Shown piece after piece: positions 6,396-49,971 of a stretch of DNA of 64,000 nt. The notes under the pieces are model-generated. The model searched no databases and was not told the origin of the DNA. It saw only the letters and a list, made by a program, of their open reading frames with translations. The stretch lies in NCBI GenBank assembly GCA_022703645.1, contig JAKLDG010000001.1, positions 573,393 to 637,392 of the forward strand, written 5' to 3'. Each line of letters begins with the position of its first letter. Position 1 is the stretch's first letter. A program made the position numbers and the translations under genes. This stretch comes from Patescibacteria group bacterium. Its GTDB lineage: Bacteria > Patescibacteriota > JACPGU01.

Positions 6396-6449
6396 AAGTT
6401 TTATCTAATTATATTCGATACTTTATATTCTATATTATTTTGTATTTTT

Positions 6450-12029: not shown

Positions 12030-15231
<3,202 letters not shown>

Positions 15232-31179: not shown

Positions 31180-31490
31180 CCCCCCTTTTATTTATTACCT
31201 ACATAATACAACAATAGATTTTTTTGGCAATAAAAAAAAGAGGCCGCGAAAAGCTTCTGTAAATCCCTCTGAAATGCCCCACTCAGGTCTTGAACCCCAC
31301 TTAACAGGAGTGTTAAGGCCTTTTCCACTAGGGGTCTTTACAGGGAAAAGGTCGGGGCGTTGTGAGGCAGTATAAACAATGCTTTAACCTGATAATGAGA
31401 CAAATGAGACACTATAAAAAGGGACTGTCTCATGTCTCAAACTTGACTTACTAGAAACATTATAGCATGAGTAAAGGAATTTGATAAGTA

Positions 31491-32057: not shown

Positions 32058-32079
32058 AATTTTATGTATTACTTTAAAC

Positions 32080-34485: not shown

Positions 34486-34499
34486 ATTCCTTATTTTAC

Positions 34500-35192
34500 C
34501 TATATTCTAGCTTTTATGTGATTGCCACCATTATCATAATTTAGAGATTCAGCAAGACCGCATGCATTCCATATGAGATCGAAAAGTGGCCTCAAAATAG
34601 TTTCCGGTTTCTCATCGTAAGAATTTATTATAATACCCGGCAGATCCAGATTATCCCTATCAATGGGTGCACCATCATAAGAAGAATACGCTGGACCAGT
34701 GGCCATGCCACAACCACCAACGCCAATAAGAGTTAAAAATATCATCATGGGCATATTTACGCCTAGATCTTTTAGAATTTTCAAATATTCCGTTAAAGAA
34801 TCTATCAATACGTTTTCAAGTGCCAAGCCTTTGATTGTTTTGCCTTCTCTACATGATGCCAAGGACAGACAATCTACTGCCTCTACAATTCCATTCCTAT
34901 AAAGTTGAACATATGAGGCTGTCTTATTGATATCATTCCCGCCACAAGCGAGAACCCCATCTACATTTATTCGACTGATATCGGGTCCTCCATGTATCGG
35001 ACTAATAGATACTGTGCGATCAAATAAAGTGCTCAAATCCAAACTGTACTCATAGTCAAGCGTGCCCAGAGGAATCAAATGTAAAATTATTCTGTTTTCG
35101 TATGATAACGAGACTGGCCTTTCATCTGAAACTATTTTCCGCACCATCTCTTTTTTTATACCGTCTATCTTTTCTATTTCACTTTGCTCCAT
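34500..35192 (-). CDS. Hypothetical protein (operon partner)
   Basis: 230-aa ORF, 14-bp gaps to both neighbours; no family recognised. Confidence 0.5.
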   Translation of the reverse strand: MEQSEIEKIDGIKKEMVRKIVSDERPVSLSYENRIILHLIPLGTLDYEYSLDLSTLFDRTVSISPIHGGPDISRINVDGVLACGGNDINKTASYVQLYRNGIVEAVDCLSLASCREGKTIKGLALENVLIDSLTEYLKILKDLGVNMPMMIFLTLIGVGGCGMATGPAYSSYDGAPIDRDNLDLPGIIINSYDEKPETILRPLFDLIWNACGLAESLNYDNGGNHIKARI

Positions 35193-35206
35193 TTATTTCT
35201 CCATTT

Positions 35207-35434
35207 CTAATTCATTAATTTTCCTATCGCATTAAACCATTCTTGCTCTAATTTTCTTACTTCTTCACGCATTTCTTCCAATTTATTAAGAGATTCAATG
35301 GTTAATACTTTCTCCGGCATTTTTTGTTTCTCGCCTTCCCATGAAATCGCCACAAATTTATCTCTATAATCTGCTAATTCATTTTCCGCTTTGACATATC
35401 GATTTGTAAGGTCATTAAATTCTTCTTGATTCAT
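35207..35434 (-). CDS. Small charged, coiled-coil-like protein (first gene of operon)
   Basis: 75 aa, E/K/R-rich heptad-like sequence; ATG at 35432-35434. Confidence 0.45.
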   Translation of the reverse strand: MNQEEFNDLTNRYVKAENELADYRDKFVAISWEGEKQKMPEKVLTIESLNKLEEMREEVRKLEQEWFNAIGKLMN

Positions 35435-35465
35435 ATTTTTTATTCTTCCTAAAATTAGTTTTATT

Positions 35466-35499
35466 TAAGGGTTGGGATCAATTGACCCCAACCCTTTAT
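35466..35499. terminator. Hairpin, terminator-like (aagggttggg-N-cccaaccctt)
   Basis: Near-perfect inverted repeat 35466-35497 with a T-run on the plus strand; 8 nt beyond the DUF1508 stop. Confidence 0.45.
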
Positions 35500-35506
35500 T
35501 TTTCTC

Positions 35507-35674
35507 CTATGCAACCGGGGCTTTCAGCGCATTGCTCCTAACCCATGCCACTGAGTTGATTGCGCCTTGTTCGCTGTCATATTCTTCGGACCAACAAACA
35601 ATCCTATTATTACCAGCGATTAATCGCCAGTAAAATAGTCCTCGACTACTTTTGCGGATTTCAAATTTTACCAT
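35507..35674 (-). CDS. DUF1508 (YegP-like) small protein, 55 aa; absent from ORF track
   Basis: Own translation MVKFEIRKSSRGLFYWRLIAGNNRIVCWSEEYDSEQGAINSVAWVRSNALKAPVA*; AGAGGTG SD-like sequence 4 nt upstream of the ATG. Confidence 0.6.
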   Translation of the reverse strand: MVKFEIRKSSRGLFYWRLIAGNNRIVCWSEEYDSEQGAINSVAWVRSNALKAPVA

Positions 35675-35838
35675 TTGACACCTCTTAAACTTGCCTTAAT
35701 TAACCACAGAGGATATAATAAATATAACCTCTGTGGCCTGTGGATATTTAAAATATCGACACGGTTTTTACAAGAAACCATTTAAACCACAGATTGGTAT
35801 ATAACTCAAAAAATCAGGCTTGCCTGATTTTTTGTTTC

Positions 35839-36219
35839 CTAAGCAACTTCTTTTTTCTTCAAATTAACGACATACACCTCGCCAACTTCTGGCATATCAT
35901 ACTTTTCCCACTTATAGCGTCCATGAAACTCTTTGGGGTCTATATTGTTGGACCTAAAAAAGCTTCTAGCCACTACACTCCCGCCATAACCTTGCTTACT
36001 ATGTAAAATGCTAAACTTATTTTTTTCTGTTTCACTGTTAGTAAATTGGATTCCTATCGCTTTACTCCCTTCATCCCAAAAAAGCACCACAAATTTTATA
36101 TCTTTTATCCCATTATCAATGTAGAACTTTTGAGGGAACCCTATGCTGTTTGACTTTGTAATAGTGATGCGATCTTCAAGCCTTAAGTTTCTTCCTTCAA
36201 ACTTTTTAAAATTATACAT
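35839..36219 (-). CDS. Hypothetical protein
   Basis: 126-aa ORF; no motif recognised. Confidence 0.45.
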   Translation of the reverse strand: MYNFKKFEGRNLRLEDRITITKSNSIGFPQKFYIDNGIKDIKFVVLFWDEGSKAIGIQFTNSETEKNKFSILHSKQGYGGSVVARSFFRSNNIDPKEFHGRYKWEKYDMPEVGEVYVVNLKKKEVA

Positions 36220-36507
36220 GTTTTTATCGTTATTTAATAATTTTCATAAGTCATTATATCACATATCCCCATAATAGGTCAATAGTATTTTATTATTATC
36301 TACTATTAATATAATATTGCGCTTTATATCATAAAAAACAGCCATACAGACTGTTTTTGTTATTATATAATAGTATATCATTTTTTCTAATTGTCTACCC
36401 TTAACACAATTTTAGCTTTCTCATGTAATATCATAATCATCTTCTGATAACGTTCAATTCCATCATTTGAAAGTTTTTTACCATTGCAACTATTGGGGCA
36501 ATTGTTT

Positions 36508-37599
36508 TTACTTCCCAGATTTTCTACGGTTGTCTTCCTTGCATAGCATCTGACAATTTTTAGAAATTGTTTTTCCGCCTTCATGCCAGGGTTTTATATG
36601 ATCTGCTTCCATTTCTCCTATTTCAAAATGTTTCTTGCATTTTACGCATTTGCCTTTTTGCTTTTCATATGCTTCTCTTTTTTGTTTGTCCGTAAAAGCC
36701 CGGATATTTAAATATCTTTCATTTCTTGTTAAGACATACGGATAAACCCCGGATTTTTTGGTCACATCTTCATCTTGCATCAATTTGACAATTTCCTTTT
36801 CCATTTTTTTGGAATCAAACTTTTCATCTTTAAATTCATTGTACAGTTCTCCCCACTCCACACTACTCATCTCTCTACGATAATTCGTAAATGTTACCCG
36901 CACCCATGCAATCACTTCTTGAAAATACTCCCACAACTTGTCGGCATTCGCATCGTGCTGGTGTTTTGCCATATAATCTTCTATCTTGCCTTTGTTAATC
37001 CATGAGAGCGCGGTTTCTAAATACTCTTGGCGAATCGGCGAACCACCAACTAATTGCCCGCCGTCATTTGCCAGAAGATATGCCGCACAATGTGTTTTGC
37101 TAAACTTTAGTTTTGCATCAGAAAGCCATGGACCAGTATAGACAGCGTTGCGCAATTCTTGGTCATATAGCTTTTCTCCAGCGATGTTAATGATTCTAAA
37201 CCAGTCCAACCGTTCTTTGTCTGTGCCCTCGCAGAAATAAATCATCAATTCATAATCCAAAATCTGATTTTGTTCTTCGTCGGTCAAGTTATGAAAAAAG
37301 CGATCATTGAGTGAAAAGTCTCCGTTTATATATTGTCCTACGCTAATAGTGCGCTGTTGGCCATCCAAAACTTCAAAATTTCCCTGATCTGTCTTAACCC
37401 AGTACATCACGTTAAGTGGAAAACCATTTTTGATTGTTTCAATCACGGCGTCCCGTTGCTTGCCGTTATAAACAAATTCGCGTTGATATTTCGGACGAAT
37501 ATCAAGTTTGCCATCGTAAGCAACTACGCCTTCTTCGGCACTATCTTTATATCCGATAATTACTTTCCTTATTGGAATTCGATGTAATTCAATTTTCAT
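36508..37599 (-). CDS. DUF262 (ParB-like/GmrS-type) domain fused to HNH endonuclease
   Basis: YQREFVYNGKQRD and LDGQQRT; C-terminal CVKCKKHF...EADHIKPWHEGGKTISKNCQMLC. Confidence 0.78.
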   Translation of the reverse strand: MKIELHRIPIRKVIIGYKDSAEEGVVAYDGKLDIRPKYQREFVYNGKQRDAVIETIKNGFPLNVMYWVKTDQGNFEVLDGQQRTISVGQYINGDFSLNDRFFHNLTDEEQNQILDYELMIYFCEGTDKERLDWFRIINIAGEKLYDQELRNAVYTGPWLSDAKLKFSKTHCAAYLLANDGGQLVGGSPIRQEYLETALSWINKGKIEDYMAKHQHDANADKLWEYFQEVIAWVRVTFTNYRREMSSVEWGELYNEFKDEKFDSKKMEKEIVKLMQDEDVTKKSGVYPYVLTRNERYLNIRAFTDKQKREAYEKQKGKCVKCKKHFEIGEMEADHIKPWHEGGKTISKNCQMLCKEDNRRKSGK

Positions 37600-37600
37600 A

Positions 37601-38644
37601 TTATTTTTTTACTTTCTTATTTTTAATAATAACTCGCGCATAAGGAACATCAACAATCCCATCTGTCATCATATATAAATCACCGTCAACAGCGCCTCTT
37701 TTTTGAATTTCTTTTCTATATTTTTTATGTTCTTCTTTATATGGTTTGACACCAATTTCTATCCCTGAGTTAGATATGCCTAAACCAATTATTTCAAATT
37801 GTTCCGGATTATATTTATCGAGGAAAGTAATTGGTACGCCTATGGCACCATTATAGTCCATTGGAATTTCAGAATTTTTATCAACATTGATAGCGTCGTA
37901 ATTCTCATATTTTGGATACTCCTCAGGTGTGTATTTTTTGTAAAGAGTAATCTCTTGCTTATGTTTTTCAACCTCAAGATTTGTAAACCAACACGAAGTT
38001 GAAACTCTCGCAATTTTCTTGCCATTATTATCAATATGATGAAAAAGCTCCCAATCGTCTGGCACAATAAAAAACATGCCAACATTAAAGTTTGTATAAC
38101 CAGTACGAAGTTTGTTATCTTTAATAAGTTTAAACACTTCCTTATAGGTCATAGCGTTAGTATTACCAATAATCAAAAACTTTTTATCGTATTCGATAAG
38201 TTGTGATAGATATTCACGAAATAACGAAAACGGAGGATTGGTCACGACAATATCGGCTTCTTTTAGCAGTTTGATACACTCCTCGCTGCGAAAATCGCCA
38301 TCGCTTATCATTTCAGTTATAAACTCTTCCGGGTCGGGCATGCGATTGCCGTTTTTGTCTCCGGCGTATTCCAATTTATAAGGCGGTTCGTGAGTAAATA
38401 AATTTGCTTCTTTGTAATGCGTTGCAATTAATTTTTTCATACCAAGTTCTTCGAACTTCATGCTGAAATACTTAACAAAATTGCTTTCTTTTGGGTCATC
38501 GCAATTGCAAAATACCACTTTGCCACGAAATTGGTCTTTGTAGTGTTTTAGCTCATTTTCAATATCGGCGAGCTGAGTATAAAACTCATCTTTCTTCGCA
38601 GCGCTTGCCTTGTGTAAGTTTTTATTTGAAGATTTATTTTCCAT
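37601..38644 (-). CDS. N6-adenine-type DNA methyltransferase (amino-MTase, NPPF motif)
   Basis: DEFYT near N-terminus, VVTNPPF motif IV; 1 bp from the downstream gene, 9 bp from the upstream gene. Confidence 0.78.
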   Translation of the reverse strand: MENKSSNKNLHKASAAKKDEFYTQLADIENELKHYKDQFRGKVVFCNCDDPKESNFVKYFSMKFEELGMKKLIATHYKEANLFTHEPPYKLEYAGDKNGNRMPDPEEFITEMISDGDFRSEECIKLLKEADIVVTNPPFSLFREYLSQLIEYDKKFLIIGNTNAMTYKEVFKLIKDNKLRTGYTNFNVGMFFIVPDDWELFHHIDNNGKKIARVSTSCWFTNLEVEKHKQEITLYKKYTPEEYPKYENYDAINVDKNSEIPMDYNGAIGVPITFLDKYNPEQFEIIGLGISNSGIEIGVKPYKEEHKKYRKEIQKRGAVDGDLYMMTDGIVDVPYARVIIKNKKVKK

Positions 38645-38653
38645 ATAATATTT

Positions 38654-39124
38654 TTATAAGTTTAGAAAATCCCAACGATTTAAATACTTTTCATCTGGAT
38701 CATCAAATTTTCTCATTATAGTATCCTTATGTTTTTGTCCATTTTTTCCAGGTGTATCTAACCAATGTGAATGTCCTTTTTTGCAATATTTTGCCACAAC
38801 TTCACTTGGCACAATAAAAAACTCAGGATATTCTTTGCGTTTATTCAAATTAACAAAAATATAGAAAAAATTATTTGAGAAATAATCCTCTGCTTTTTGA
38901 TTTAGAATCCAACTCCTAGTTGGACTACTGCTTGCCTTTACTTGAATATTTACTGATTTACTGGCTTCAGAGTTTGAACATAGAATATCGATTCCTCTGG
39001 TGTTTCTCAAAATGATTGACGCGATATAACCTCTCTTCGATAATTCCGCGGCAACAAAATATTCTCCAGCTACACCAGTTAAAACAGACCCGATTTTTTC
39101 AGTTTCATTCTTAATGACTGGCAT
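38654..39124 (-). CDS. Small PD-(D/E)xK-like endonuclease-fold protein (putative)
   Basis: GEYFVAAELSKRGY...GIDIL...NIQVK spacing; 156 aa. Confidence 0.45.
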   Translation of the reverse strand: MPVIKNETEKIGSVLTGVAGEYFVAAELSKRGYIASIILRNTRGIDILCSNSEASKSVNIQVKASSSPTRSWILNQKAEDYFSNNFFYIFVNLNKRKEYPEFFIVPSEVVAKYCKKGHSHWLDTPGKNGQKHKDTIMRKFDDPDEKYLNRWDFLNL

Positions 39125-39169
39125 AAAATTAAGTTAATTTTATTTCTTCTATTTTACCATAAAAAATAC

Positions 39170-39210
39170 CTAAAAACAATTGAAAGAGGAGCTATACGAG
39201 CCCCTCTTTC
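39170..39210 (-). terminator. Rho-independent terminator after membrane-protein gene
   Basis: Minus-strand GAAAGAGGGGCUCGUAUAGCUCCUCUUUC followed by AAUUGUUUUUAGG. Confidence 0.6.
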
Positions 39211-39227
39211 AACAGTGAATACTAATT

Positions 39228-39884
39228 CTAGTTATAAGCGTCTATTTTCTTATCACCATCATTATCATAGAAACACATCGTGGTTTTACCGTGATAACAC
39301 CATTGCCACTGAGTGCCACTTCCATAATTTGAAGGCTTAGCAGAATCAGGCTCTCTACCAGCAGACGCCACTAGCATTTCATAAGTCATTCCAATCCAAA
39401 CATTTTGCTTTGCAACATCTTCACATATCTTCTTGGTCCAATCAGGATGTGCTGATTTGCATTTCTGCCCTTCTGGTGTAGCCTCATATGCTTTTTCTTC
39501 TGCTGCCAATTTTTCAAAAGCTTCTGCGGCCATATTAACTGCATCATAATCTAGTTCATCTTTATTTTGCTGAACTAAAGACGGCTTATTGAGACTCGAA
39601 GCTATATTATTAAATATAAGAAAGTTTAAGAAAAAGATGACAGCGAATACTGGCAAGATCGCTACAGCATTTATTACGGTTTTCTTTTTCTTGGAAAAAC
39701 CTTTTCTTGACCATAACCACCAAACAAGTAACCCCGTTATATAAACAGGTAAACCAAATAGCGGAACTGCCAAAAAATCGATATTAACTAACAACCCCAG
39801 TATAATCATCAGGGCAAATAAACCCGCGCCTGAAACAGCTATTATTTTACCCTTCCCCCACTTTTTAATTTCTTCTTGAGACAT
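39228..39884 (-). CDS. Membrane protein (3 N-terminal TM segments, Cys-containing C-terminal domain)
   Basis: 218 aa; hydrophobic N-terminal third. Confidence 0.55.
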   Translation of the reverse strand: MSQEEIKKWGKGKIIAVSGAGLFALMIILGLLVNIDFLAVPLFGLPVYITGLLVWWLWSRKGFSKKKKTVINAVAILPVFAVIFFLNFLIFNNIASSLNKPSLVQQNKDELDYDAVNMAAEAFEKLAAEEKAYEATPEGQKCKSAHPDWTKKICEDVAKQNVWIGMTYEMLVASAGREPDSAKPSNYGSGTQWQWCYHGKTTMCFYDNDGDKKIDAYN

Positions 39885-40065
39885 AAAACCTCCTTCTAAT
39901 TAAAATAACCACAAGAAAAACTTGTGGTATTTGATAATATTATTTCTAAATTTTATATTACATTTTTGTAACATGGTTCTTGGTCGGTTTTTATAATTTT
40001 TGGTGAAAAACACAAAGCTCCCCACCAGCGATCTCTTGCGAGACCCACACCCCTTTCGGGGCATG

Positions 40066-40118
40066 ACCGACCAAGGTGCTCTGATGGAGAGCTTTCTACC
40101 TTGGTCGGGTTTTATACC
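40066..40118 (+). other. Nested stem-loop (12-bp stem accgaccaaggt/accttggtcggg plus inner gctc-tgatgga-gagc) followed by T-run
   Basis: Read directly; 18-nt motif cttggtcggtttttata also occurs at 39979-39995. Confidence 0.4.
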
Positions 40119-40256
40119 ATATCCTACAGATATACTGCAGGGGTTAGGTAACTAAATTGTTAGTCCTATCTTAGCAGATAAAACACTCAAAGTAAAGCGT
40201 TATTGAGCTGGTCTTTTAACGCCTTTTATGCCATAATTTAAGAAATAAATATCATT

Positions 40257-40823
40257 ATGAAGAAAAAGACTATAAATAAAAATATAGAACCAGTATCCTT
40301 TCCCAAGCTTTTTGAATGGGGTTCGAGAAAGTCGAACAAACCTGTAATTTTGGATTATCTTAGTAAGCATACGGAAGTTAATATGATGAAATCATTAATG
40401 CCAAAGGGATTAGTAACACATGGAAATATGGCATCACAAATCAAGCTTAATCTACCAGATCGAAACATGGCAGATATTATAATAGATGGGATCGCAGCAA
40501 AGCTCAACGCTTCTGGAGACAAAATTGTTCTATATATCAATTCAAGTGGTGACTTGTATCAAAAAGGAGATCAAGAACATAAACACTCTTTCAAATTATC
40601 ATCTCTAAGATTTCAGATATTAAGAATTTTAAAAGATTCTTTTGTAAAGCCGGAATATATTAGACACGAAACCGATAGTGTAAGTGTAGGATCCGTCAGA
40701 AAAGCAGTTAATGAGATTAACAGCCAAGTGAAAATAAAGCTTGGCATTGAAAACAACATAATTGAGGGTAAAGGCGGTAGCGGATACAGGATTAATCCAA
40801 AATATAAACTAGAATTTATCTAA
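40257..40823 (+). CDS. Hypothetical protein (first gene of phage-derived module)
   Basis: 188-aa ORF; no SD; no family recognised. Confidence 0.45.
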   Translation: MKKKTINKNIEPVSFPKLFEWGSRKSNKPVILDYLSKHTEVNMMKSLMPKGLVTHGNMASQIKLNLPDRNMADIIIDGIAAKLNASGDKIVLYINSSGDLYQKGDQEHKHSFKLSSLRFQILRILKDSFVKPEYIRHETDSVSVGSVRKAVNEINSQVKIKLGIENNIIEGKGGSGYRINPKYKLEFI

Positions 40824-40968
40824 AGACAAAATGTCCTCGTAAGTGGAGTGGATAATGTTTATAGAAAATGGTCATTAAGGCCATTTTTTGTTTTGGAAAA
40901 CTCCATGTAGAGGTCGCTCCCAAAAAAATATAATGATTCCAAGTAATAACTAAACGGAAAGGAATCTT

Positions 40969-42342
40969 ATGTCAAAAGAAAAAATGACAAAGACAAGCGA
41001 CCTTAGGGTCGAACAGGTTGCAATCAGCAACCTAAAGCCCAGCGACTATAACCCGAGACGCTGGACAACCGATGCTATCAAGCAATTGCGAGACAGCATC
41101 GAGAGATTCGGATTAGTGGATCCCATAATATGTAACATTGCTCCAGGTCGAGAGCAGATTGTTATTGGGGGTCACTTCAGATTGAAGGTGGCGAAGGATC
41201 TGGGATTTAAAGAAGTCCCAGTTGTGTATCTTAATATCCCAGACATCGAGAAAGAGAAAGAGTTGAATATTCGCTTGAATAAAAATTTAGGCGAATTCGA
41301 TTTCGATTTGCTCAAAAGTTTCGGTGAGGATTTTCTATCGAATATAGGATTCTCATCCGAAGACCTCGATAGGATTTTTGAAGTTGAAGATACACCTGGG
41401 GTCTTCGATTTGGAAAAAGAATTGAAAAAGTTGGATATCAAAAACATTGAAATCCAAAAAGGAGATCTTTGGGATCTTGATGGAAGCAGAATGTACTGTG
41501 GTGACTCCACCATCGAAGAAGATGTGCTGGCACTAATGGGAAATGAAAAGGCCGACATGGTCATGACGGATCCTCCATATCTACTAAATTATCTTGTAGG
41601 CAAGAAAAAACACGGTCAAGCAACAGAAGGATTCGGATATAAAAGAGATCGCAAATATCTTGAAACAGACTTCTTACCCGAAGACTTCACAGAAAAATGG
41701 ATGGCCAATGTTAATAAAGTTCAAAAGGATGACTTTCATATTATCGTGTATGAAAACTGGAAGAACATTAGGACTATATGGGGCGAAATGGAAAAGTATT
41801 GGAAGGTCAAAAATATGATTGTGTGGCATTTGCCCAACCGTGTTCAGAACTTCTCATCAAAATATAAGTTGTTCAATAAGCATGACATAGCCATGGTTGG
41901 CACAGCCAAAGACTTGGAATTTAATTTTGAGCAAGAGAACAAGGAATTGCAAAACGAATATGATACTGCGCTTTATGCTATAGCCGGGAAGCCAGCGTGG
42001 GAGTCATATGAAAAAGGTAAAAAATATTGTCCTACCGACTTTATAGAATTCAACGCCGCCGATGAAAAAAGTTCTGGCCAAGGAATTATATTCGGCACCA
42101 AGCCAATCGAGATTCTAATTCCGTATATAAAAGTATTAACCAAAAGAGATGATTTAGTCCTAGAACCCTTCGGCGGTAGTGGTAGTACTTTAATAGCGGC
42201 AACAAAACTGAAACGCCGTTGTTTCCTTATGGAAAAATCGCCTGTCTACGCGGAAGTGATTAGAAAAAGGTGGGAAAACCTTACAGGCCTGAAAGCTGTG
42301 CTGATTTCCAAAAAGGAGGTGAAAGATGATAAAGCAGGATAA
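40969..42342 (+). CDS. ParB-like nuclease domain fused to DNA methyltransferase (beta-class amino-MTase)
   Basis: N-terminal ISNLKPSDYNPRR; MVMTDPPY motif IV before LEPFGGSGSTLIAA motif I; SD GGAAAGGAA upstream. Confidence 0.82.
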   Translation: MSKEKMTKTSDLRVEQVAISNLKPSDYNPRRWTTDAIKQLRDSIERFGLVDPIICNIAPGREQIVIGGHFRLKVAKDLGFKEVPVVYLNIPDIEKEKELNIRLNKNLGEFDFDLLKSFGEDFLSNIGFSSEDLDRIFEVEDTPGVFDLEKELKKLDIKNIEIQKGDLWDLDGSRMYCGDSTIEEDVLALMGNEKADMVMTDPPYLLNYLVGKKKHGQATEGFGYKRDRKYLETDFLPEDFTEKWMANVNKVQKDDFHIIVYENWKNIRTIWGEMEKYWKVKNMIVWHLPNRVQNFSSKYKLFNKHDIAMVGTAKDLEFNFEQENKELQNEYDTALYAIAGKPAWESYEKGKKYCPTDFIEFNAADEKSSGQGIIFGTKPIEILIPYIKVLTKRDDLVLEPFGGSGSTLIAATKLKRRCFLMEKSPVYAEVIRKRWENLTGLKAVLISKKEVKDDKAG

Positions 42343-42739
42343 GGTTCAGAAGGCATTACTAGAACAATTGGTTAAAATGCCAATTGTTCAGGTAGCAGTA
42401 GATAAGACCAGAATAAGCCGAGCTACATTCTACAGAATGATTAAGAAAAATAAGAAGTTCAAAGAAGATGTAGATAAGGCAATTGAACAAGGCAGGCTAC
42501 TTATAAATGATATGGCCGAGGTACAAATAATCTCGGCAATCAAGGACCGCAACATAACCAGCCTAATTTACTGGCTCAACCATAATCATCCAGTATACCG
42601 AACGAAGATCGAAATCGAAGCCAATCACAAGATGATTGATGGAAAAATAAGTAAAGAACAAGAATTATTAATTAAAAAAGCGATAGAACTAATATCGCCT
42701 AATCTACAGGAGGTTCAAGATGAACAAAATAACAAATAG
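42326..42739 (+). CDS. Putative terminase small subunit / HTH DNA-binding protein
   Basis: 137 aa with VAVDKTRISRATFYRMI HTH-like segment; overlaps both neighbours (17 and 20 nt); AGGAGGTG SD. Confidence 0.45.
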   Translation: MIKQDKVQKALLEQLVKMPIVQVAVDKTRISRATFYRMIKKNKKFKEDVDKAIEQGRLLINDMAEVQIISAIKDRNITSLIYWLNHNHPVYRTKIEIEANHKMIDGKISKEQELLIKKAIELISPNLQEVQDEQNNK

Positions 42740-44183
42740 TCAAAATCAAGATTTACCTATTGAGGTAATCGAAAGCGTCATTAACGATCAAAAGCTCAGG
42801 ACAAATCTCACCAAAAGAAATCCGCTATGGTTCTTTGGGCTTTACTTCTCGCACTATATCACTTTCCCAATTGCTGATTTCCAGAGAGAGATATTTCAGA
42901 TCATGAGTGATGAGAGTCAAAAGCAGGTCGTAATCACAGCTTTTCGTGGAAGCGCAAAATCTACATTAATTACCCTGTGCTATGCTCTTTGGAGTATTAT
43001 GGGGTCGCAAAACAAGAAATTTATAGTGATCATTAGTCAAACCCAAGAGTTAGCAAAACAACATCTGAAAAATATTAAACGAGAACTTGAGGAAAATGAT
43101 CTATTAAAGGCGGATCTTGGCCCATTTCAAGAGGAAAATGAATGGGGTTCTGGAGCAATAGTATTGCCAAAATACAATGCAAAAATAATGGTGGCTTCAA
43201 CAGAGCAAAGTATCCGTGGTATCAAACATGGACCATACAGACCGGATATCATAATCGCAGACGATGTAGAGGATGTAAATTCTACTAAGACGTCGGATAG
43301 CCGGAACAAAACTTATGAATGGTACAATAGTGAAATTGTGCCACTGGGAGACATTGGCACAAGAATTATCGTTGTAGGAAACCTACTTCACGAAGATTCT
43401 TTAGTAATGAGATTAATAAATGAGATGGAAGATGGCCAGCGAACTGGAATCTTTAGAAAATACCCCATCATGGATAATGGAGATAATATATTGTGGCCAG
43501 GAAAATACCCAGATCTAAACGCAATCGAAACTGAAAAACTAAAAGTTGGCGATAAATTCTCATTTGCAAGAGAATATATGTTAAGCATTGTAGATCGCAG
43601 AGAAGCTATCGTAGTCAGAGAAAACATCCACTATTATAAGGAAGTTCCTCCAAAGGGTCATGGAGATTACAATGTAATTAGCACCGATCTAGCCGTATCG
43701 CTAAAAGAGTCTGCGGATTATACTGCAATAATTTCTGCCAAGATAATTGGGCAAGGAAAAGACAGAAAGATATATATTCTCGAAAATCCTGTAAACGAAA
43801 GACTGGATTTCTCGCAAGCTACGGATATGGTCAAGGCAACCATTAGCAGTCTTGGAAATATATTTGAAACCGAAGTCTATGTTGAAAATGTAGGAGCTCA
43901 AGATTACTTTGCTCAACATCTTGGCGAACAGTCGTATCTAGTTAAAAGCCTAAAGGTTGGAAATATGGATAAAAGAGGCAGATTGTATGTTTCCCATAAA
44001 TGGATAAGCTCCGGCAGAGTCCTCTTCCCAGAACATGGTGCTGAAAAACTTATTGAACAGATATTGGGATTCGGAGTTGAAAAACATGATGATTTAGTAG
44101 ATGCCTTCACGCTATTGGTGATGAATACCATAGAGAAAACCTTCGAATATGAAGGGAAAACGATCGGGCTTTTACGATTCTAG
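42720..44183 (+). CDS. Phage terminase large subunit
   Basis: Walker-A-like AFRGSAKST, acidic IIIADDVED, C-terminal nuclease-like region; AGGAGG SD. Confidence 0.8.
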   Translation: MNKITNSQNQDLPIEVIESVINDQKLRTNLTKRNPLWFFGLYFSHYITFPIADFQREIFQIMSDESQKQVVITAFRGSAKSTLITLCYALWSIMGSQNKKFIVIISQTQELAKQHLKNIKRELEENDLLKADLGPFQEENEWGSGAIVLPKYNAKIMVASTEQSIRGIKHGPYRPDIIIADDVEDVNSTKTSDSRNKTYEWYNSEIVPLGDIGTRIIVVGNLLHEDSLVMRLINEMEDGQRTGIFRKYPIMDNGDNILWPGKYPDLNAIETEKLKVGDKFSFAREYMLSIVDRREAIVVRENIHYYKEVPPKGHGDYNVISTDLAVSLKESADYTAIISAKIIGQGKDRKIYILENPVNERLDFSQATDMVKATISSLGNIFETEVYVENVGAQDYFAQHLGEQSYLVKSLKVGNMDKRGRLYVSHKWISSGRVLFPEHGAEKLIEQILGFGVEKHDDLVDAFTLLVMNTIEKTFEYEGKTIGLLRF

Positions 44184-44329
44184 ATTGCTGGACTTTAATA
44201 GTGGTTTGTAGTCTTATTAAAGACTTAGTTATCTACAGCTTTAAGTCTGGACTTGAAAGGACGCTTGCGGTACCCTCCCCTTTGCCTGGTAGAGATATCG
44301 GGAAATATAAATAAAGGGAAAGGAGAAAA

Positions 44330-45721
44330 ATGCCAAAAACAAGCGTCCTTGATTGCCCTCCTACTATATATGGCAATCGGAACAAGGAGGTAGCTGAAAT
44401 ACCAATCAGATACTGCCTCTATGCTAGAAAATCAACTGAACAGGACGAATTACAAGCCCTGTCAATTGATTCTCAGATCCACGAGATGAAAACACTGGCT
44501 GAAAGAGAAAATCTGGAAGTGGTAGAGATTAGAAAAGAATCCCATTCGGCGAAGGAATCGGGACAACGACCAGTGTTCAACAAAATACTAACCGACCTGC
44601 GGGAAGGAATGTTTAATGGGATTCTCACATGGGCTCCTGATAGATTGAGTAGAAATGCTGGGGACTTAGGATCATTAGTAGATCTGATGGATCGGGATGT
44701 ATTAGTAAAGATAAGGACACCTAATCAATTCTTCACTAATTCTCCAAATGAGAAATTCATGCTAATGATCCTATGTTCTCAAGCCAAGTTGGAAAATGAT
44801 AATAAAAGCTTGAATGTAAAGCGAGGTCTAAAAGCTAAATGCCAAATGGGATATAGACCGGGGGTCACTCCCCTAGGATACCTAAATGAACCCACTGGGA
44901 TAAAGGGACAAAGAAAAGTGACGATTGATCCAAGTAGAGCACCAACAGTTAAAAAGATGTTTGAAAAAGTTGGGTATGAAAGAGCTAGTGGCAGAGAAAT
45001 ATATAGATGGCTGGTATATGATCAGGACTTCAAAACCAAATCTGGAAAGCGAGTAACATTGAGCAACATCTTCCGAATGCTTCATACACCATTCTATTAT
45101 GGAGACTTTGAATATCCGCAAGGATCCAATACTTGGTATAAAGGAAATCATGAACCAATAATAACAAAGGAACTTTATGAAACGGTTCAAGAGAATCTCA
45201 AAGTAGATCCGAAAATTAAATATGGAATCAAGGACTTCCAATTCACAAAGCTGGTATTCTGCGGAACATGCGGAGCGATGATCACGGCTGAAGAAAAGTT
45301 CAAGAAACTGCTCGATGGCGGTGTGAGAAGGCATGTCTACTACAGGTGCGTAAAGAGAGTAGATGTTGATTGCCAAGAACCACCAATAAAAGAAGAAGAA
45401 TTATTAGAACAAATGATTCAGCTAATGGATAAAATAGATTTTTATAAAAAAGGAACCTTCGACAAGATTCAGCAGGAAGTTGAAAGGTATAACAAATTCT
45501 CCCAAGTAGTATTCGGCAAAGGCAACCAAGACAAACAAATCAAAGTCAAAAAGACCGATATCAAATCCTACGCCGCCTACATCCTCCGCGAGGGTGGTAG
45601 AGAAGAAAAACGAGAACTGCTGATGAATCTGCGAACGAAACTATATATAAAAGATAGTAAGATATTTATCAAAGAGAATGAGGTAGTAGAAAACCCAGAT
45701 CAAGCAACACAAAATGAATGA
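44330..45721 (+). CDS. Large serine recombinase (integrase/resolvase family)
   Basis: YARKSTEQDE (catalytic Ser), APDRLSRN, C-terminal Cys zinc ribbon (CGTCGAM...CVKRVDVDC); AGGAG SD. Confidence 0.85.
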   Translation: MPKTSVLDCPPTIYGNRNKEVAEIPIRYCLYARKSTEQDELQALSIDSQIHEMKTLAERENLEVVEIRKESHSAKESGQRPVFNKILTDLREGMFNGILTWAPDRLSRNAGDLGSLVDLMDRDVLVKIRTPNQFFTNSPNEKFMLMILCSQAKLENDNKSLNVKRGLKAKCQMGYRPGVTPLGYLNEPTGIKGQRKVTIDPSRAPTVKKMFEKVGYERASGREIYRWLVYDQDFKTKSGKRVTLSNIFRMLHTPFYYGDFEYPQGSNTWYKGNHEPIITKELYETVQENLKVDPKIKYGIKDFQFTKLVFCGTCGAMITAEEKFKKLLDGGVRRHVYYRCVKRVDVDCQEPPIKEEELLEQMIQLMDKIDFYKKGTFDKIQQEVERYNKFSQVVFGKGNQDKQIKVKKTDIKSYAAYILREGGREEKRELLMNLRTKLYIKDSKIFIKENEVVENPDQATQNE

Positions 45722-45776
45722 TAATTAGCTGAGCTATGGGCATAATACATATTATCACCTTGGCGAATTTATTTAC

Positions 45777-45831
45777 TTGACATGTATTTATCCACTTTGA
45801 TATACTATAACTAACTTACCGAGCGGTAAGT
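45777..45831 (+). promoter_or_regulatory. Sigma70-like promoter (TTGACA, 18 nt, TATACT) plus 18-bp perfect palindromic operator ACTTACCG-AG-CGGTAAGT
   Basis: -35 at 45777-45782, -10 at 45801-45806, palindrome 45814-45831, 24 nt before the TetR start. Confidence 0.6.
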
Positions 45832-45854
45832 AAATAAAAGTAATTTATAGAATT

Positions 45855-46442
45855 ATGGAAACAATTGCAAAACAATCCGGGGATGTTATTCAAGACACCC
45901 AAAAACACATTATTAACACAGCTCGTCGTTTTTTCTCTGAATACAGCTACCTAGGTGTTTCGATGAATGATATCGCCAAAAAGCTAGGTATTACCAAAGC
46001 TGCCCTTTACTATCACTTTACTGGTAAAGCGGAAATCTACGGAAAAGTGTTGGATAGTGTTTTTAGTGATTTAAACCTAACTATTGCCCATGCACTAAAT
46101 GAAGGTACGGTTGATAAAAAACTACATAAACTAATAAAAAATTATCTAGATTTTGGTTGTAAAGAGAAAAACCTAATCAAGGCCTTAATGTTAAAGCTAT
46201 CTCCAGCCGATTCTCAAATAACAAAACAGATTTCTCAGTTGAGAGAACAAGCTGCTTATTTAATTCAACCAGTAATTGAAGAGGTATCAATAAGTAAAAA
46301 CTTAACCAAGAAAGTTGATGCTAGCCTATTAACATCAATGCTTACCAGCATGATGGATGGACTGCTTTTGGAATATTCATTCCTCAACAAAAAAATAAAT
46401 TCAGCAAAAATATCAGATCAGATTGTTGCTGTTTTATTTTAG
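45855..46442 (+). CDS. TetR/AcrR-family transcriptional regulator
   Basis: N-terminal HTH ARRFFSEYSYLGVSMNDIAKKLGITKAALYYHF. Confidence 0.8.
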   Translation: METIAKQSGDVIQDTQKHIINTARRFFSEYSYLGVSMNDIAKKLGITKAALYYHFTGKAEIYGKVLDSVFSDLNLTIAHALNEGTVDKKLHKLIKNYLDFGCKEKNLIKALMLKLSPADSQITKQISQLREQAAYLIQPVIEEVSISKNLTKKVDASLLTSMLTSMMDGLLLEYSFLNKKINSAKISDQIVAVLF

Positions 46443-46514
46443 TGGTCGAGGGTTGATCCACCATAAGGATTTTATGGATTAATTAAATTAAATAAATATA
46501 AAAGGAGTATACCA

Positions 46515-46643
46515 ATGAGTTTTCTATCAAACATAAATTGGTCAAGCCCAACAACTATCGTGATTGAGGTGGCAATAGTTGTGGTTATAGCTGCTGCTGG
46601 TTATCTGATTTGGGCTTGGAAATCAAAACAGTGGCCATTTTAG
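46515..46643 (+). CDS. Small single-TM peptide, 42 aa; absent from ORF track
   Basis: AAAGGAG SD 5 nt before the ATG; MSFLSNINWSSPTTIVIEVAIVVVIAAAGYLIWAWKSKQWPF*. Confidence 0.4.
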   Translation: MSFLSNINWSSPTTIVIEVAIVVVIAAAGYLIWAWKSKQWPF

Positions 46644-46748
46644 TCAAATAGTATTTGGGGCGCTCAATTACCTAGATATCTTAAATAAAAATAACATTGA
46701 GCGCCCTATAATATTTTACTCAAGTGAAATGATAATTAAAAAATAAAT

Positions 46749-46856
46749 ATGGGTTTTGTAACAAACACTATAGCAAATATTCGCGAAGCATCTGGAGGAA
46801 TAGTTTTCTTACTAGGTATTATTTGTGTATATTATTTTACGCTTATAAAAAAATGA
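46749..46856 (+). CDS. Possible small TM peptide, 35 aa; stop overlaps next start (ATGA)
   Basis: MGFVTNTIANIREASGGIVFLLGIICVYYFTLIKK*; no SD; TGA at 46854-46856 overlaps ATG at 46853. Confidence 0.25.
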   Translation: MGFVTNTIANIREASGGIVFLLGIICVYYFTLIKK

Positions 46857-47587
46857 AAAACTCTACAATAATCAAACAACTGGTTTGGCTCACTATTTTT
46901 GCCATAGCCATGGGTTTCCTGGAAGCAACGGTAGTTGTTTATCTCAGAGACCTGTATTACCCGAACGGATTTGATTTTCCTCTCGTCATGAACACTAACC
47001 CCCACTTTATTGTTATGGAGTGGTGTAGAGAAGCCTCCACAATAATAATGCTTGTGGCCATAGGAGTATTGGCAAGCAAGGACCTACTCCGAAGGTTTTC
47101 TTATTTTCTATACAGCTTTGCTATATGGGATATCTCTTATTATGTCTGGCTGAAAGTGGTTTTGGGATGGCCAACATCTTTTCTGACATGGGATCTTCTT
47201 TTTCTTATTCCTGTGCCTTGGATAGGGCCCGTTCTTGCTCCGATAATATGCTCCCTGACCATGATTGCTCTTTGCTTCTCTATAATCTATTTACAGAAAA
47301 AAGAACTTCTAAAAAAAATAAATCTATATGAGTGTATCTTAATGATTTCTGGAGCCTTTTTGATTTTTATTTCTTTTATATGGGACTATTCTAAGATAGT
47401 TATTCAAGGAGGATTTCTAAAGGGATTTTTTCACCTTGGATCAAATCCTGAATTCCAGCAAATAATTTCACATTATATTCCAGTCCATTATAATTGGGGA
47501 CTATTTATTGTTGGTGAGGTTTTAATATTGTGCACTTTTGTATTGTTTTATAGAAAAAAACCGGCTAATAAGGAGAATAATAAATGA
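46853..47587 (+). CDS. Integral membrane protein (multi-TM)
   Basis: Track ORF 46823-47587; ATG at 46853 (MKNSTIIKQ) preferred; stop overlaps the GT2 start (ATGA). Confidence 0.55.
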   Translation: MKNSTIIKQLVWLTIFAIAMGFLEATVVVYLRDLYYPNGFDFPLVMNTNPHFIVMEWCREASTIIMLVAIGVLASKDLLRRFSYFLYSFAIWDISYYVWLKVVLGWPTSFLTWDLLFLIPVPWIGPVLAPIICSLTMIALCFSIIYLQKKELLKKINLYECILMISGAFLIFISFIWDYSKIVIQGGFLKGFFHLGSNPEFQQIISHYIPVHYNWGLFIVGEVLILCTFVLFYRKKPANKENNK

Positions 47588-48360
47588 AGAAAATGATTTC
47601 TATAATTATTCCTACATTAAACGAGGAGATCTACTTACCTAAATTATTAAAATCAATTAAAGAGCAAGATTATGAAAACTATGAGGTTATAATAGCCGAT
47701 GCCGGTTCTACAGATAGTACCAAAGATATAGCTCGAGAATTTGATTGTAAAATTGTAAGAGGCGGCCTCCCGGCTGTTGGCAGAAATGCTGGCGGAGAAG
47801 TTGCAAGAGGAAAGTACCTGTTATTTTTAGATGCGGATGTTGTCTTGCATAATGATTTTATAAAAAAAGCACTAAAAGAATTTGAAGAAAGGTCTCTAGA
47901 TATAGCTACTTGCAGATTTTACCCATTAAGTGACAGGTATATTGATATACTTTTGCATCAAGTATATTTCATTTATATGTTAGTTTTGCAATATTCCTCT
48001 CCAAAGGCACCAGGCTTTTGTATCTTATCTAGACGCTGGGTTTTTAATATGACAAGAGGATTTGATGAAAAGATTAGAGTGGGAGAAGATCACGATTACT
48101 GTATCAGGGCAAGTAAATTTGGGGCATTTAGGATACTTAAAAAGCCGAAACTTTATGTATCCGTCAGGAGACTAGAAAAGGAAGGAAGGCTTGGTTTGGC
48201 AACAAAGTATGTTACTTACTCAGTATATAAAAACTTAACGGGTAAAGATTTTCCTTTGATGAAATATGAATTTAGCAATTATAATAATATTTCTCATGAA
48301 AAAGAAAGGTCTTTTTATAATAAGATAGTTAATAAAATCAGTGCAAAAAAAGAGATGTAA
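47584..48360 (+). CDS. Family-2 glycosyltransferase
   Basis: ISIIIPTLNEE and LFLDADV (DxD). Confidence 0.8.
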   Translation: MKKMISIIIPTLNEEIYLPKLLKSIKEQDYENYEVIIADAGSTDSTKDIAREFDCKIVRGGLPAVGRNAGGEVARGKYLLFLDADVVLHNDFIKKALKEFEERSLDIATCRFYPLSDRYIDILLHQVYFIYMLVLQYSSPKAPGFCILSRRWVFNMTRGFDEKIRVGEDHDYCIRASKFGAFRILKKPKLYVSVRRLEKEGRLGLATKYVTYSVYKNLTGKDFPLMKYEFSNYNNISHEKERSFYNKIVNKISAKKEM

Positions 48361-48365
48361 TAAAT

Positions 48366-49211
48366 ATGACAAAATCAAAGCAACCTAAAATTGGTTTGGT
48401 ATTGGGAAGTGGCGGTCCAAGAGGATTAGCACATATTGGCGTAATTAAAGTTTTAGAGGAAAATAATATCCCGATTGATTTTATCGCCGGCTCAAGCATT
48501 GGTGCTATGGTTGGTGGATTTTATGCTGCTACGAAAGATATACAACAAGTAGAAAAAATAGCACTTGATACTGATTGGAGACTGATTTTATCTCTTTTAG
48601 ACCCCTCTTTCCGACAAGGATTGCTTGGTGGGAATAAAGTAAAAAACTTTATTGAAAGCAATTTGGATGGAATAAAATTTGAAAACTTAAAGATTCCCCT
48701 TTCAATAGTGGCAACTGATTTAAAAAGTGGCGATGCTGTTGTTATAAACAAAGGCGAGATCGATTCAGCAATTAGAGCCAGTATTTCAGTCCCCCTGATT
48801 TTCAAGCCCATAGAACGAGAGGGTAAATTATTGGCTGATGGCGGTTTATCATTGCCTGTTCCTGTTGAAGTCGTAAGGAAAATGGGAGCAGAGTTGGTAA
48901 TAGCAGTTAATTTAGATGCAGACTACTTTACTAGCAGCAACAATGAAAATAAGAAATTGGGTTTTTATAAAATAGCTGATAATTCAATTAATCTCCTGCG
49001 CCATCACCTCGCTTATTGGAATGTCAAGGATGCCGATCTTGTTATTAATCCTAAAGTTGGCAATGCAAACTGGGGTAAATTTTTGAATGGCAAAGATATG
49101 ATTCGGGCTGGCGAGGAAGCAACGAGGGGAATTTTACCCCAATTAAAAAATTTAATACACCCAACCAGTAATAGTAGCTGGAGAAGGTATTGGGAATTTT
49201 TTAAAGGATAA
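48366..49211 (+). CDS. Patatin-like phospholipase
   Basis: GLVLGSGGPRGLAHIGV, GSSIGA (GxSxG), LADGG. Confidence 0.85.
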   Translation: MTKSKQPKIGLVLGSGGPRGLAHIGVIKVLEENNIPIDFIAGSSIGAMVGGFYAATKDIQQVEKIALDTDWRLILSLLDPSFRQGLLGGNKVKNFIESNLDGIKFENLKIPLSIVATDLKSGDAVVINKGEIDSAIRASISVPLIFKPIEREGKLLADGGLSLPVPVEVVRKMGAELVIAVNLDADYFTSSNNENKKLGFYKIADNSINLLRHHLAYWNVKDADLVINPKVGNANWGKFLNGKDMIRAGEEATRGILPQLKNLIHPTSNSSWRRYWEFFKG

Positions 49212-49232
49212 AGTTAAAAGTAAAAACCAAAA

Positions 49233-49748
49233 ATGCAGAAAGATGGTTTGAAAATTATTAAAGACAAGCTTACTAATTCTGAGATAAAAATTATCAGGTC
49301 AGAGATTAGAGAGTCTCCCGACATGACTGGTTATAGTTTGTCAGAACTTTTACAACATAGGAATGTTTTTAAGGCATACAAAAACAACGAGCTTGCGGGA
49401 GCCTGTATTAATTCTGATTTTGGAGAAAATTGGACAGAAATCGGCGGTTTTATTGTACTGCATAAGTTCCGCAGACAAGAAATCGGCAAACTGCTTTATA
49501 GGACAGGCTTTGAGGATGCGATCAAAAGACACAAAAACATTTACATTACTAGCAGAAATCCAGCGATGATAAGAATATTAAAAAATAGTGATTTGAAAAT
49601 AACCACTAGTTTTTTGAAATTGCCAAAAGAAATTCAGCTTCATTCTTTGAGATTTACAGTTAACTGGTTCAGGTTTTGGGAGGCGATCCGTAAAACAATA
49701 GTCATGAATAAATCAGGAAGGCTAATTTATGGGTATAAGAAACTTTAG
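49233..49748 (+). CDS. Probable GNAT-family acetyltransferase
   Basis: HKFRRQEIGKLL resembles GNAT motif A; low-confidence family call. Confidence 0.45.
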   Translation: MQKDGLKIIKDKLTNSEIKIIRSEIRESPDMTGYSLSELLQHRNVFKAYKNNELAGACINSDFGENWTEIGGFIVLHKFRRQEIGKLLYRTGFEDAIKRHKNIYITSRNPAMIRILKNSDLKITTSFLKLPKEIQLHSLRFTVNWFRFWEAIRKTIVMNKSGRLIYGYKKL

Positions 49749-49786
49749 ACCCATACACTTAGAACAATAACAAAACAGATTCGATC

Positions 49787-49816
49787 AAAAAAGAGAGTTA
49801 GGCTCTCTTTTTTGTG
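49787..49816 (+). terminator. Rho-independent terminator (perfect 11-bp stem aaaaaagagag/ctctctttttt)
   Basis: 49787-49813 inverted repeat with 5-nt loop, then T-rich tail; just after the GNAT stop. Confidence 0.6.
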
Positions 49817-49887
49817 CCTTTTCCTACCTAGGAAAGGTCGCCCTTTCCTCACCCTTAAACAGGTCGATTTACACGATTTTTATAGAA

Positions 49888-49969
49888 TGCCCGGGAGAGG
49901 ACTCGAACCTCCAAGCCTTGCGGCACATGCTCCTAAGGCATGCGTGTCTGCCAATTTCACCACCCGGGC
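49888..49969 (-). tRNA. tRNA-Leu (anticodon TAG), long variable arm
   Basis: GCCCGGGTGGTGAAATTGGCAGACACGCATGCCTTAGGAGCATGTGCCGCAAGGCTTGGAGGTTCGAGTCCTCTCCCGGGCA. Confidence 0.88.
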
Positions 49970-49971
49970 AT

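Follow-up and report, generated by a model that had tools for sequence, protein, structure and literature searches.

The 64-kb stretch of DNA analysed here (the window), which belongs to the metagenome-assembled genome (MAG) of an ultra-small bacterium of the Patescibacteria, contains at 40257-45721 a compact module of phage-type genes: a ParB-methyltransferase fusion (ParB-MTase, or MTase), a small and a large terminase subunit (TerS and TerL) and a large serine recombinase (SerRec), preceded by an orphan open reading frame (ORF). In our view the chances are about even that this module represents the core of an integrative, satellite-like island of ~18.7 kb, located at the 3' side of a tRNA-Leu gene and belonging to a large undescribed family in Patescibacteria. 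The four genes can be identified, they recur in many genomes without structural genes, they lie beside tRNA genes amid defence cargo, and they are associated with the LOOT RNA. From these features we infer induction, excision, packaging and dependence on a helper phage. A literature search, which was incomplete, returned no description of the module itself.

All five ORFs are present at 40257-45721 on the plus strand, as an earlier interpretation made from the sequence alone (the sequence-only reading) had described, and the identities it gave to the last four hold under profile searches. The ParB-MTase (40969-42342) combines ParB_N and N6_N4_Mtase domains (Pfam, 2.7e-10 and 1.1e-22, respectively) and matches phrog_498 (1.5e-79). 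The 137-aa helix-turn-helix (HTH) protein that follows (42326-42739) gives a match to phrog_309 that is weak alone (2.3e-6), and no significant match in a profile search against the PDB; its assignment as TerS is based on its orthologs, 45/46 of which match PHROG small-terminase families (best 3.3e-13). The TerL (42720-44183), with an ATPase and an RNase-H-like nuclease, is covered by phrog_38 over residues 23-474 (5.1e-80) and by Terminase_6C over residues 322-469 (8.8e-6), and its profile finds T7 gp19 in the PDB, with matches to 4bij and 8dgc. Residues K80/T82, D181/D182, D323 and D458/D461 are invariant in an alignment of 30 TerL homologs and probably correspond to Walker-A-type residues (K80/T82), Walker-B-type residues (D181/D182) and the acidic residues of the nuclease (D323/D458/D461). 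In the SerRec (44330-45721), all three Pfam domains of large serine recombinases score above cut-off (Resolvase 4.3e-22, Recombinase 3.9e-14, Zn_ribbon_recom 5e-6), accompanied by a match to phrog_95 (1.2e-67); the closest solved chains are 3g13, 3guv and TP901-1 Int 3bvp. Judged by sequence, the window genes belong to the TerL, TerS and large serine recombinase families.

The arrangement of the genes agrees with the overlapping or short junctions reported before: the MTase and TerS frames overlap by 17 nt and the TerS and TerL frames by 20 nt, with gaps of 145 and 146 nt on either side of this three-gene block. Strong Shine-Dalgarno (SD) sites, which had been claimed for the module, are present as GGAGG-type sequences upstream of TerS, TerL and SerRec; the one upstream of the MTase is weaker, and there is none before the first ORF start at 40257. 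This first ORF (40257-40823, plus strand; 188 aa, or 146 aa from the NCBI start at 40383) yields no family match in Pfam, PHROG or PADLOC scans and matches only itself among 5.8 billion proteins. A role as regulator is possible, as guessed from its position alone.

Capsid, portal, tail and lysis genes are absent from the entire 64-kb window, in agreement with the earlier statement that no such structural genes follow the module; the other ORFs tested represent housekeeping, restriction-modification (R-M) and unknown genes. Similarly, no portal or major-capsid homologs occur within 10 kb of any module-bearing locus. The window element is not an intact prophage of the Caudoviricetes. The homology search that had been proposed for the terminase shows that its relatives in IMG/VR include real phages (L058, L059, L070, L071 and L074-L076), with TerL 33-44% identical to that of the window. 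In these phage loci, which are without TerS and SerRec, TerL is followed by a portal gene (phrog_2662, 9.8e-120) and then by the gene for an HK97-type major head protein (phrog_10, 5.7e-90). Many of the module contigs have also been catalogued as viral in IMG/VR by virus-detection pipelines. With the packaging module of temperate tailed phages (ParB-MTase, TerS, TerL, portal) the island shares gene order and families up to TerL; from there on, portal and capsid genes follow in the phages, whereas LOOT and/or the serine recombinase follow in the island.

The extent of the family becomes clear only with an alignment as query, since the window TerL as a single protein had no matches in the genome and viral collections. 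Scans with the TerL alignment listed 80 loci from GTDB species-representative genomes, out of at least 492 relatives, together with 79 IMG/VR loci. The 80 listed GTDB records are mostly Patescibacteria by label, with a minority of other labels, all labels being taken as given; the lineages named include Saccharibacteria, Berkelbacteria, Paceibacterota, Moraniibacteriota, Peribacteria, Gracilibacteria, Woesebacteria and others. Around five TerL homologs of 84% to 48% identity, which lie on chromosomal contigs as long as 465 kb, the order MTase-TerS-TerL-SerRec is shared, and the flanks of this core differ at 84% and at about 50% TerL identity. In 145/168 loci, TerL is immediately preceded by MTase and TerS. 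Downstream, a SerRec on the same strand is found in 55/73 genome loci with enough sequence, at a distance of up to 600 bp in 29, of 0.6-3 kb in 16 and of 3-9 kb in 10. When 2,664 flanking ORFs were compared all against all, only four clusters were present in at least 100 loci, and these are MTase, TerS, TerL and SerRec. The same four genes are intact in more than 130 loci of many lineages, which makes independent decay of prophages unlikely. By these sequence comparisons, the module is a recurrent conserved core and not a one-off degraded prophage.

Several contigs or MAGs carry two copies of the module. The genome of the window itself encodes a second TerL (P0051, P5096_00840; 51% identical), ~140 genes away on the same 867-kb contig, which might belong to another island or to a genuine prophage that could act as helper. 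Pairs of modules 12-37 kb apart were seen on single IMG/VR contigs (L012/L036, L034/L054 and L051/L052), which suggests tandem or composite islands. The composition of the core varies as well. L227 and L235 are TerL-less variants with MTase-TerS-SerRec, and in L189 a 440-aa ORF (5460-6782, plus strand) that is not matched by the TerL profile occupies the position of TerL between TerS and SerRec, possibly as a strongly diverged TerL or as a gene that took its place. One contig, that of L124 (1-17334; Falkowbacteria MAG, JAFGMD010000010.1), is the sole whole contig with a terminal repeat, a direct one of 44 bp. Its 17.3 kb encode TerS, TerL, two MTases and, in tandem, two large serine recombinases of 576 and 582 aa; LOOT and a protein with an Ntox44 toxin domain are also present, and there are no structural proteins. 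It may be the circular form of a related element, a terminal repeat being weak evidence of this. Large serine recombinases are known to excise and insert cargo cassettes site-specifically, as in SCCmec (ccrAB) and Tn4451 (TnpX), which are not known to carry terminase genes; the two tandem recombinases of L124 resemble ccrAB of SCCmec.

The sequence-only reading had confined the element to 40257-45721. Synteny with a sister genome from the Patescibacteria (L307) indicates that the five-gene module is only the core of a larger island of about 31.2-49.9 kb. In L307 the genes are ordered RsmD-like, ComEA-like, tRNA-Leu(tag), malic enzyme, DUF1385, thioredoxin, TIM, FBA, PfkB and aldehyde dehydrogenase; a single gene, that for malic enzyme, lies between tRNA-Leu and DUF1385, and the site contains neither LOOT nor the module. 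The same flanking genes are present in the window, with 18,707 bp between the tRNA-Leu 3' end and DUF1385. The probable full island therefore spans 31180-49886, from the host DUF1385 gene to the 3' end of tRNA-Leu(tag) (49887-49970, minus strand). This 3' end points toward the recombinase, and both the orientation pattern of the family and the L307 site mark the tRNA gene as the probable integration site. By this comparison, made with a distant genome, the window element would qualify as a tRNA-associated island.

The position of the tRNA is a general property of the family. The tRNA downstream of SerRec is on the opposite strand in 34/34 loci (in 29/34 the sequence downstream extends for 1.5 kb or more), so that its 3' end faces the recombinase, and 11/34 of these tRNAs are only 94-262 bp away from the SerRec stop codon. 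The genes for tRNA-Ser and tRNA-Gln are the commonest at this position. Three relatives contain a repeat of the tRNA 3' end far to the left of the tRNA: 18 nt at 13.6 kb in L148, 25 nt at 17.2 kb in L150 and 17 nt at 16.6 kb in L126. All three repeats start at, or no more than about 2 nt from, the tRNA 3' end, and they enclose left cargo, core and right cargo. Partial duplicates of tRNA-Gly are found at the junction of L092. Between the SerRec stop and tRNA-Ser, the motif AAGTTCCAG occurs two to three times (L003 7424-7663; L051 20054-20241); these copies may be recombinase-binding or att-associated repeats. No directionality factor for SerRec was identified.

On both sides of the core, the island carries cargo genes. 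To the left, on the minus strand, a type II restriction endonuclease (36508-37599; GmrSD_N/DUF262 6.8e-16, HNH 9.6e-11, PADLOC REase_II 2.5e-137) is encoded next to an adenine methyltransferase of the EcoRI family (37601-38644; EcoRI_methylase 1.4e-127, PADLOC MTase_II 3.1e-114), its cognate R-M methyltransferase. Between this pair and LOOT lie genes for a 156-aa protein of a phage-associated family of unknown function (38654-39124; phrog_29029 2.1e-15) and for a 218-aa predicted membrane protein with three transmembrane (TM)-like segments (39228-39884), which is the first gene 3' of LOOT; the relative with 84% TerL identity has a 217-aa gene in the matching position. Farther left (31491-36219, minus strand), ORFs of 188, 801, 230, 75, 55 and 126 aa have no recognised function, their only match in Pfam, PHROG or PADLOC being DUF1508 in the 55-aa ORF, and they are absent from the L307 site. 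An R-M set similar to that of the window (GmrSD_N, EcoRI-methylase, GmrSD_N+HNH) is present at another site of L307 (17074-21110), which indicates that this type of R-M system moves between contexts.

To the right of the core, the genes between SerRec and tRNA-Leu (45855-49748, plus strand) encode, by Pfam, a TetR regulator, a 254-aa membrane protein, a GT2 glycosyltransferase, a patatin-like phospholipase and a GNAT acetyltransferase. The TetR gene (45855-46442) had been correctly named as the next gene after the module, and sister-genome synteny suggests that it is probably not host flank: all of these genes are absent from the L307 syntenic site, and 1-8 kb of cargo separate SerRec from the tRNA in other family members. 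The TetR-to-GNAT genes are, by comparison, probably island cargo. Upstream of the TetR gene lies the region's best sigma-70-like promoter (TTGACA-18-TATACT, 45777-45806), which is followed, just before the gene, by an 8-2-8 inverted repeat, ACTTACCGAGCGGTAAGT (45814-45831). The segment 45777-45831 looks like a putative autoregulated TetR operator.

In the family as a whole the cargo is variable and consists for the most part of R-M and other anti-phage genes. Other islands of the family bring R-M systems of type I, TaqI-type and type IIG, as well as an OLD-family nuclease with a UvrD helicase that is Gabija-like by domain content. Further cargo includes AbiEii, SNF2-PLD proteins, reverse transcriptases, DUF2779/HerA, DUF4145 and DUF6119. 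The commonest accessory gene, found in 28 loci, encodes a LexA/CI-type repressor with LexA_DNA_bind and Peptidase_S24 domains and is transcribed away from the MTase on the opposite strand; HTH proteins of the XRE type are present in 14 loci, and no accessory cluster other than the LexA-type repressor exceeds 15 loci. A divergent repressor of this kind corresponds to the way in which temperate phages and satellites are regulated.

Just to the left of the module lies a gene that went unmentioned in the sequence-only reading, that of a LOOT RNA (Rfam RF03000; 40005-40150, minus strand, including a 3' extension of ~25 nt). The Rfam match covers 40030-40150 and model positions 1-121 with 96.6 bits, against a gathering threshold of 46.4 bits, and our own model gives 150.7 bits over 40005-40150. 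A covariance model made from three copies detects LOOT in 31/80 genome loci and in about 12/79 viral loci, with a core gene nearly always no more than about 1.5 kb away. Three positions recur: upstream of the MTase and divergent from it, which is the case in the window; in the interval from TerL to SerRec, on the strand opposite to them; and directly downstream of SerRec on the same strand. For the converse test, 80 metagenome loci were fetched by a LOOT sequence pattern that made no use of TerL. A core gene, most often SerRec, is found in 21/27 loci with at least 3 kb on the LOOT 5' side, and LOOT loci without core genes show defence-like genes 3' of LOOT. Short-read contigs often end in LOOT or a few hundred bp from its 5' side (position 1 of L001 corresponds to ~40079 of the window; many of L170-L249), as would be expected if both LOOT and the module were variable, or present in several copies, in the communities sampled.

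LOOT is listed in Rfam only as a small RNA (sRNA) of unknown function. In the literature, within an incomplete search, no description of a link between LOOT and terminase or recombinase genes was found, and the main text of the likely source of LOOT, Weinberg et al. 2017 (PMC5737381), does not mention it.

The ~25-nt 3' extension of LOOT, located beyond the 121-nt Rfam model, is conserved (alignment A5) and pairs with the segment that Rfam draws as inner hairpin. This long-range helix comprises 16 pairs that are 97.4% paired, 10 of them with compensatory changes, and its support collapses when the partners are slid against each other. It crosses the outer hairpin of the Rfam model and would represent either a pseudoknot or an alternative fold. 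A U-tract follows the helix, resembling an intrinsic terminator. Downstream of the helix, an ORF on the same strand is present in 105/106 loci at a median distance of 33 nt, compared with 71% at random positions; ORFs of at least 150 aa follow in 73%, compared with 32% at random positions, an effect that is real but moderate. A TM-like segment is found in 74/105 of the proteins encoded after LOOT, including the 218-aa protein of the window, whose ORF begins 120 nt after LOOT. A further terminator-like hairpin, ACCACAAG...CTTGTGGT with a T-run (39908-39928, minus strand), is situated between LOOT and the 218-aa gene, so that in the window copy two terminator-like structures precede this ORF. 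The placement of LOOT suggests that it serves the element as a 5' leader, attenuator or riboregulator acting on the expression of cargo, and not as a free sRNA. Two other roles were considered. A guide- or bridge-like role for the recombinase finds no support, as the longest match of LOOT to att or tRNA ends averages 7.0 nt within the same locus versus 7.1 nt between mismatched loci. That LOOT is a host gene serving as integration target was rejected, since in most loci the RNA is part of the element, situated either in the interval from TerL to SerRec or in that from SerRec to the tRNA.

How a satellite-like island of this kind might operate can be outlined from its genes. A repressor would hold the core operon off until an SOS response or phage infection, upon which the serine recombinase would excise the island, to re-integrate it later at a tRNA-proximal site. 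TerS would recognise a pac-type site on the island DNA, and TerL would cut this DNA and pump it into procapsids of a helper phage whose portal it can dock to. Modification by the ParB-methyltransferase could protect the island DNA from restriction in both the donor and the next host, and the defence cargo would repay the host for carriage. Phages whose TerL is 33-44% identical do exist. A more specific proposal, which we offer tentatively and on which we would not rely, describes these elements as a widespread class of helper-dependent Patescibacteria islands with MTase, TerS, TerL and serine integrase, without replication or capsid genes, and with LOOT as a dedicated riboregulator, a leader whose closing helix resembles a terminator and which gates the cargo, in many cases membrane or defence genes. 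They would then be the first satellites of the Candidate Phyla Radiation, with a new minimal design, and would give LOOT its first biological context.

Of the two explanations offered by the sequence-only reading, a degraded prophage or a satellite-like element, the second is the better fit, although it is one that we infer, and a number of observations weigh against it. No helper phage was identified, nor was an excised circle, a packaged form or an empty site within the species observed; the window arrangement is shared by every contig that carries the exact TerL (7/7) or the exact DUF1385 protein (3/3), and for the exact TetR, ComEA-like and P0051 proteins no further record was found. Described satellites replicate after excision (PMC10803314, PMC10085698), but no replication gene (primase, Rep or helicase loader) recurs among the flanking clusters or is present in the window island. 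A downstream SerRec is missing in 18/73 genome loci within the sequence covered, and in the repeat-bounded islands the recombinase is placed mid-island, not at an end. As for the att sites that had been proposed as a check, tRNA-end repeats that may represent them occur in the three relatives and not in the window, which contains no att repeat or partial tRNA-Leu copy; approximate matches of 12-20 nt to the tRNA-Leu 3' end are likewise absent there, and repeats in the 29-47 kb region are at chance level only. The ends of the island are accordingly approximate. L307 is also a distant genome, its DUF1385 being 47% identical, and some of the 18.7 kb could therefore be host DNA of ancestral origin. 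Finally, the window copy is without the LexA-type repressor, and the only genes there that might have a regulatory role are the orphan ORF and the TetR gene.

Comparison with known satellites shows partial agreement with several classes. PICI and SaPI are site-specific islands of about 10-17 kb with an integrase, a repressor-type regulator, their own TerS and accessory or defence genes, and without structural and lysis genes (PMC10085698). The present family shares with them the integrase, a TerS that corresponds to the PICI small terminase, the cargo and the absence of structural genes; the LexA/S24 and XRE-type proteins of some loci may correspond to the PICI regulation module (alpA, merR or a stl-type repressor), and the TerS-only variants (L227, L235) are the most PICI-like. 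It differs in having no primase-replicase or capsid-morphogenesis genes, in the type and mid-island position of its integrase, a large serine recombinase, and in the addition of TerL, ParB-methyltransferase and LOOT RNA. Satellites of the PICI and cfPICI types carry TerS alone or TerS with TerL; as for the integrase, the serine type is treated as an analogue that is exchangeable with the tyrosine type in SatelliteFinder models (PMC10085698). The cfPICI have their own TerL besides TerS, as here, and phylogenies of their TerL and capsid are mentioned in PMC10085698, but none of the capsid, portal and head-tail genes that define them occur in the present islands. PICMI combine a minimal gene set without capsid-remodelling genes, presumably packaging without capsid resizing, with protection of the host against other phages (PMC10803314). 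The present island resembles them in the minimal set and the lack of capsid-remodelling genes; none of the PICMI core genes are shared, this core consisting of a tyrosine integrase, AlpA and a primase, without terS, next to fis in Vibrionaceae (PMC10803314). The EPIPs of Mycolicibacterium, a satellite class proposed in a preprint, have in common with the present family the pairing of a small terminase with a serine integrase; they carry head-tail adaptor, scaffold and tape-measure proteins and are without TerL, methyltransferase and LOOT (PMC12822802). In the literature that could be searched, no satellites are described in Patescibacteria.

Other explanations account for part of the same evidence. 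The core might primarily be a weapon, with MTase, TerS and TerL acting against phages by competing for procapsids or cutting concatemers and SerRec moving the anti-phage island, so that transfer in capsids is not its main purpose. In nearly every locus examined the core is indeed embedded in R-M or defence genes, no replication module was found, and a methyltransferase beside a nuclease-ATPase resembles self/non-self marking. Known satellites do shield their hosts via packaging interference (PMC10803314, PMC10085698); in them, however, interference and transfer coexist, and an HTH-type TerS with TerL, in phage-like order and with overlapping frames, is what the packaging of specific DNA needs. 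The 188-aa ORF, the sole module gene scanned against PADLOC, gave no match. On balance, we consider an anti-phage island unlikely. Somewhat harder to uphold is a platform for lateral transduction, which would start in-situ headful packaging from an island pac site and export cargo and host DNA in the capsids of a co-resident phage, without excision or replication. This would agree with the lack of replication genes and with the direction of the terminase operon, which points toward SerRec, right cargo and tRNA, and phages and PICIs have been documented to move defence genes by lateral transduction (PMC12829572). A full-length conserved integrase, tRNA-end repeats and multiple copies per genome, on the other hand, indicate that the island itself moves, and no pac site was identified, leaving this explanation improbable.

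The comparative data disfavour both remaining explanations. A temperate Patescibacteria phage that had lost its structural and lysis genes, as in the degraded prophage of the sequence-only reading, would leave genes of the phage type, which all four core genes are, and both the real phages in the TerL family and the many viral listings in IMG/VR could be taken in its favour. Decay is difficult to reconcile with four genes that stay intact in more than 130 loci, with invariant catalytic residues and overlapping frames and never a portal or capsid fragment beside them, and we regard it as very improbable. It is hardly credible that the island is a complete virus whose capsid and tail proteins are too novel to be recognised. 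The 801-aa and 230-aa products would be the candidates, and none of the libraries gave a structural-family or functional match for any of the six ORFs at 31.5-36.2 kb; yet these ORFs are not conserved between islands, the islands measure 14-19 kb, of which the core takes about 5.5 kb and identifiable R-M genes several kb, and real phages with a related TerL have recognisable portal and HK97 capsid proteins.

The CPR (Candidate Phyla Radiation)/Patescibacteria represent a large share of bacterial diversity, with mobile elements and phage interactions that are barely known and very few known prophages. If the satellite-like island is real, its family would provide a major route of gene flow in reduced Patescibacteria genomes, especially for R-M and other defence systems. 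The satellite concept would be extended to a design of TerS, TerL and serine integrase without a replicon, and LOOT would gain a genomic context together with a testable role. The compact serine integrases, with their tRNA-proximal sites, would be candidates for genome engineering.

Two features of the window outside the island deserve mention. A 23S rRNA match (12031-15233, minus strand) extends over 3,203 nt, compared with 2,925 nt of the model, giving about 280 nt extra; CPR bacteria commonly have insertions in their rRNA genes. To the right of the island, a gene for a Cache-domain protein (52078-53814) is followed by one encoding a 2,888-aa protein of Big_9/cadherin-like repeats (53829-62495, plus strand), which is probably a surface adhesin of this episymbiont.

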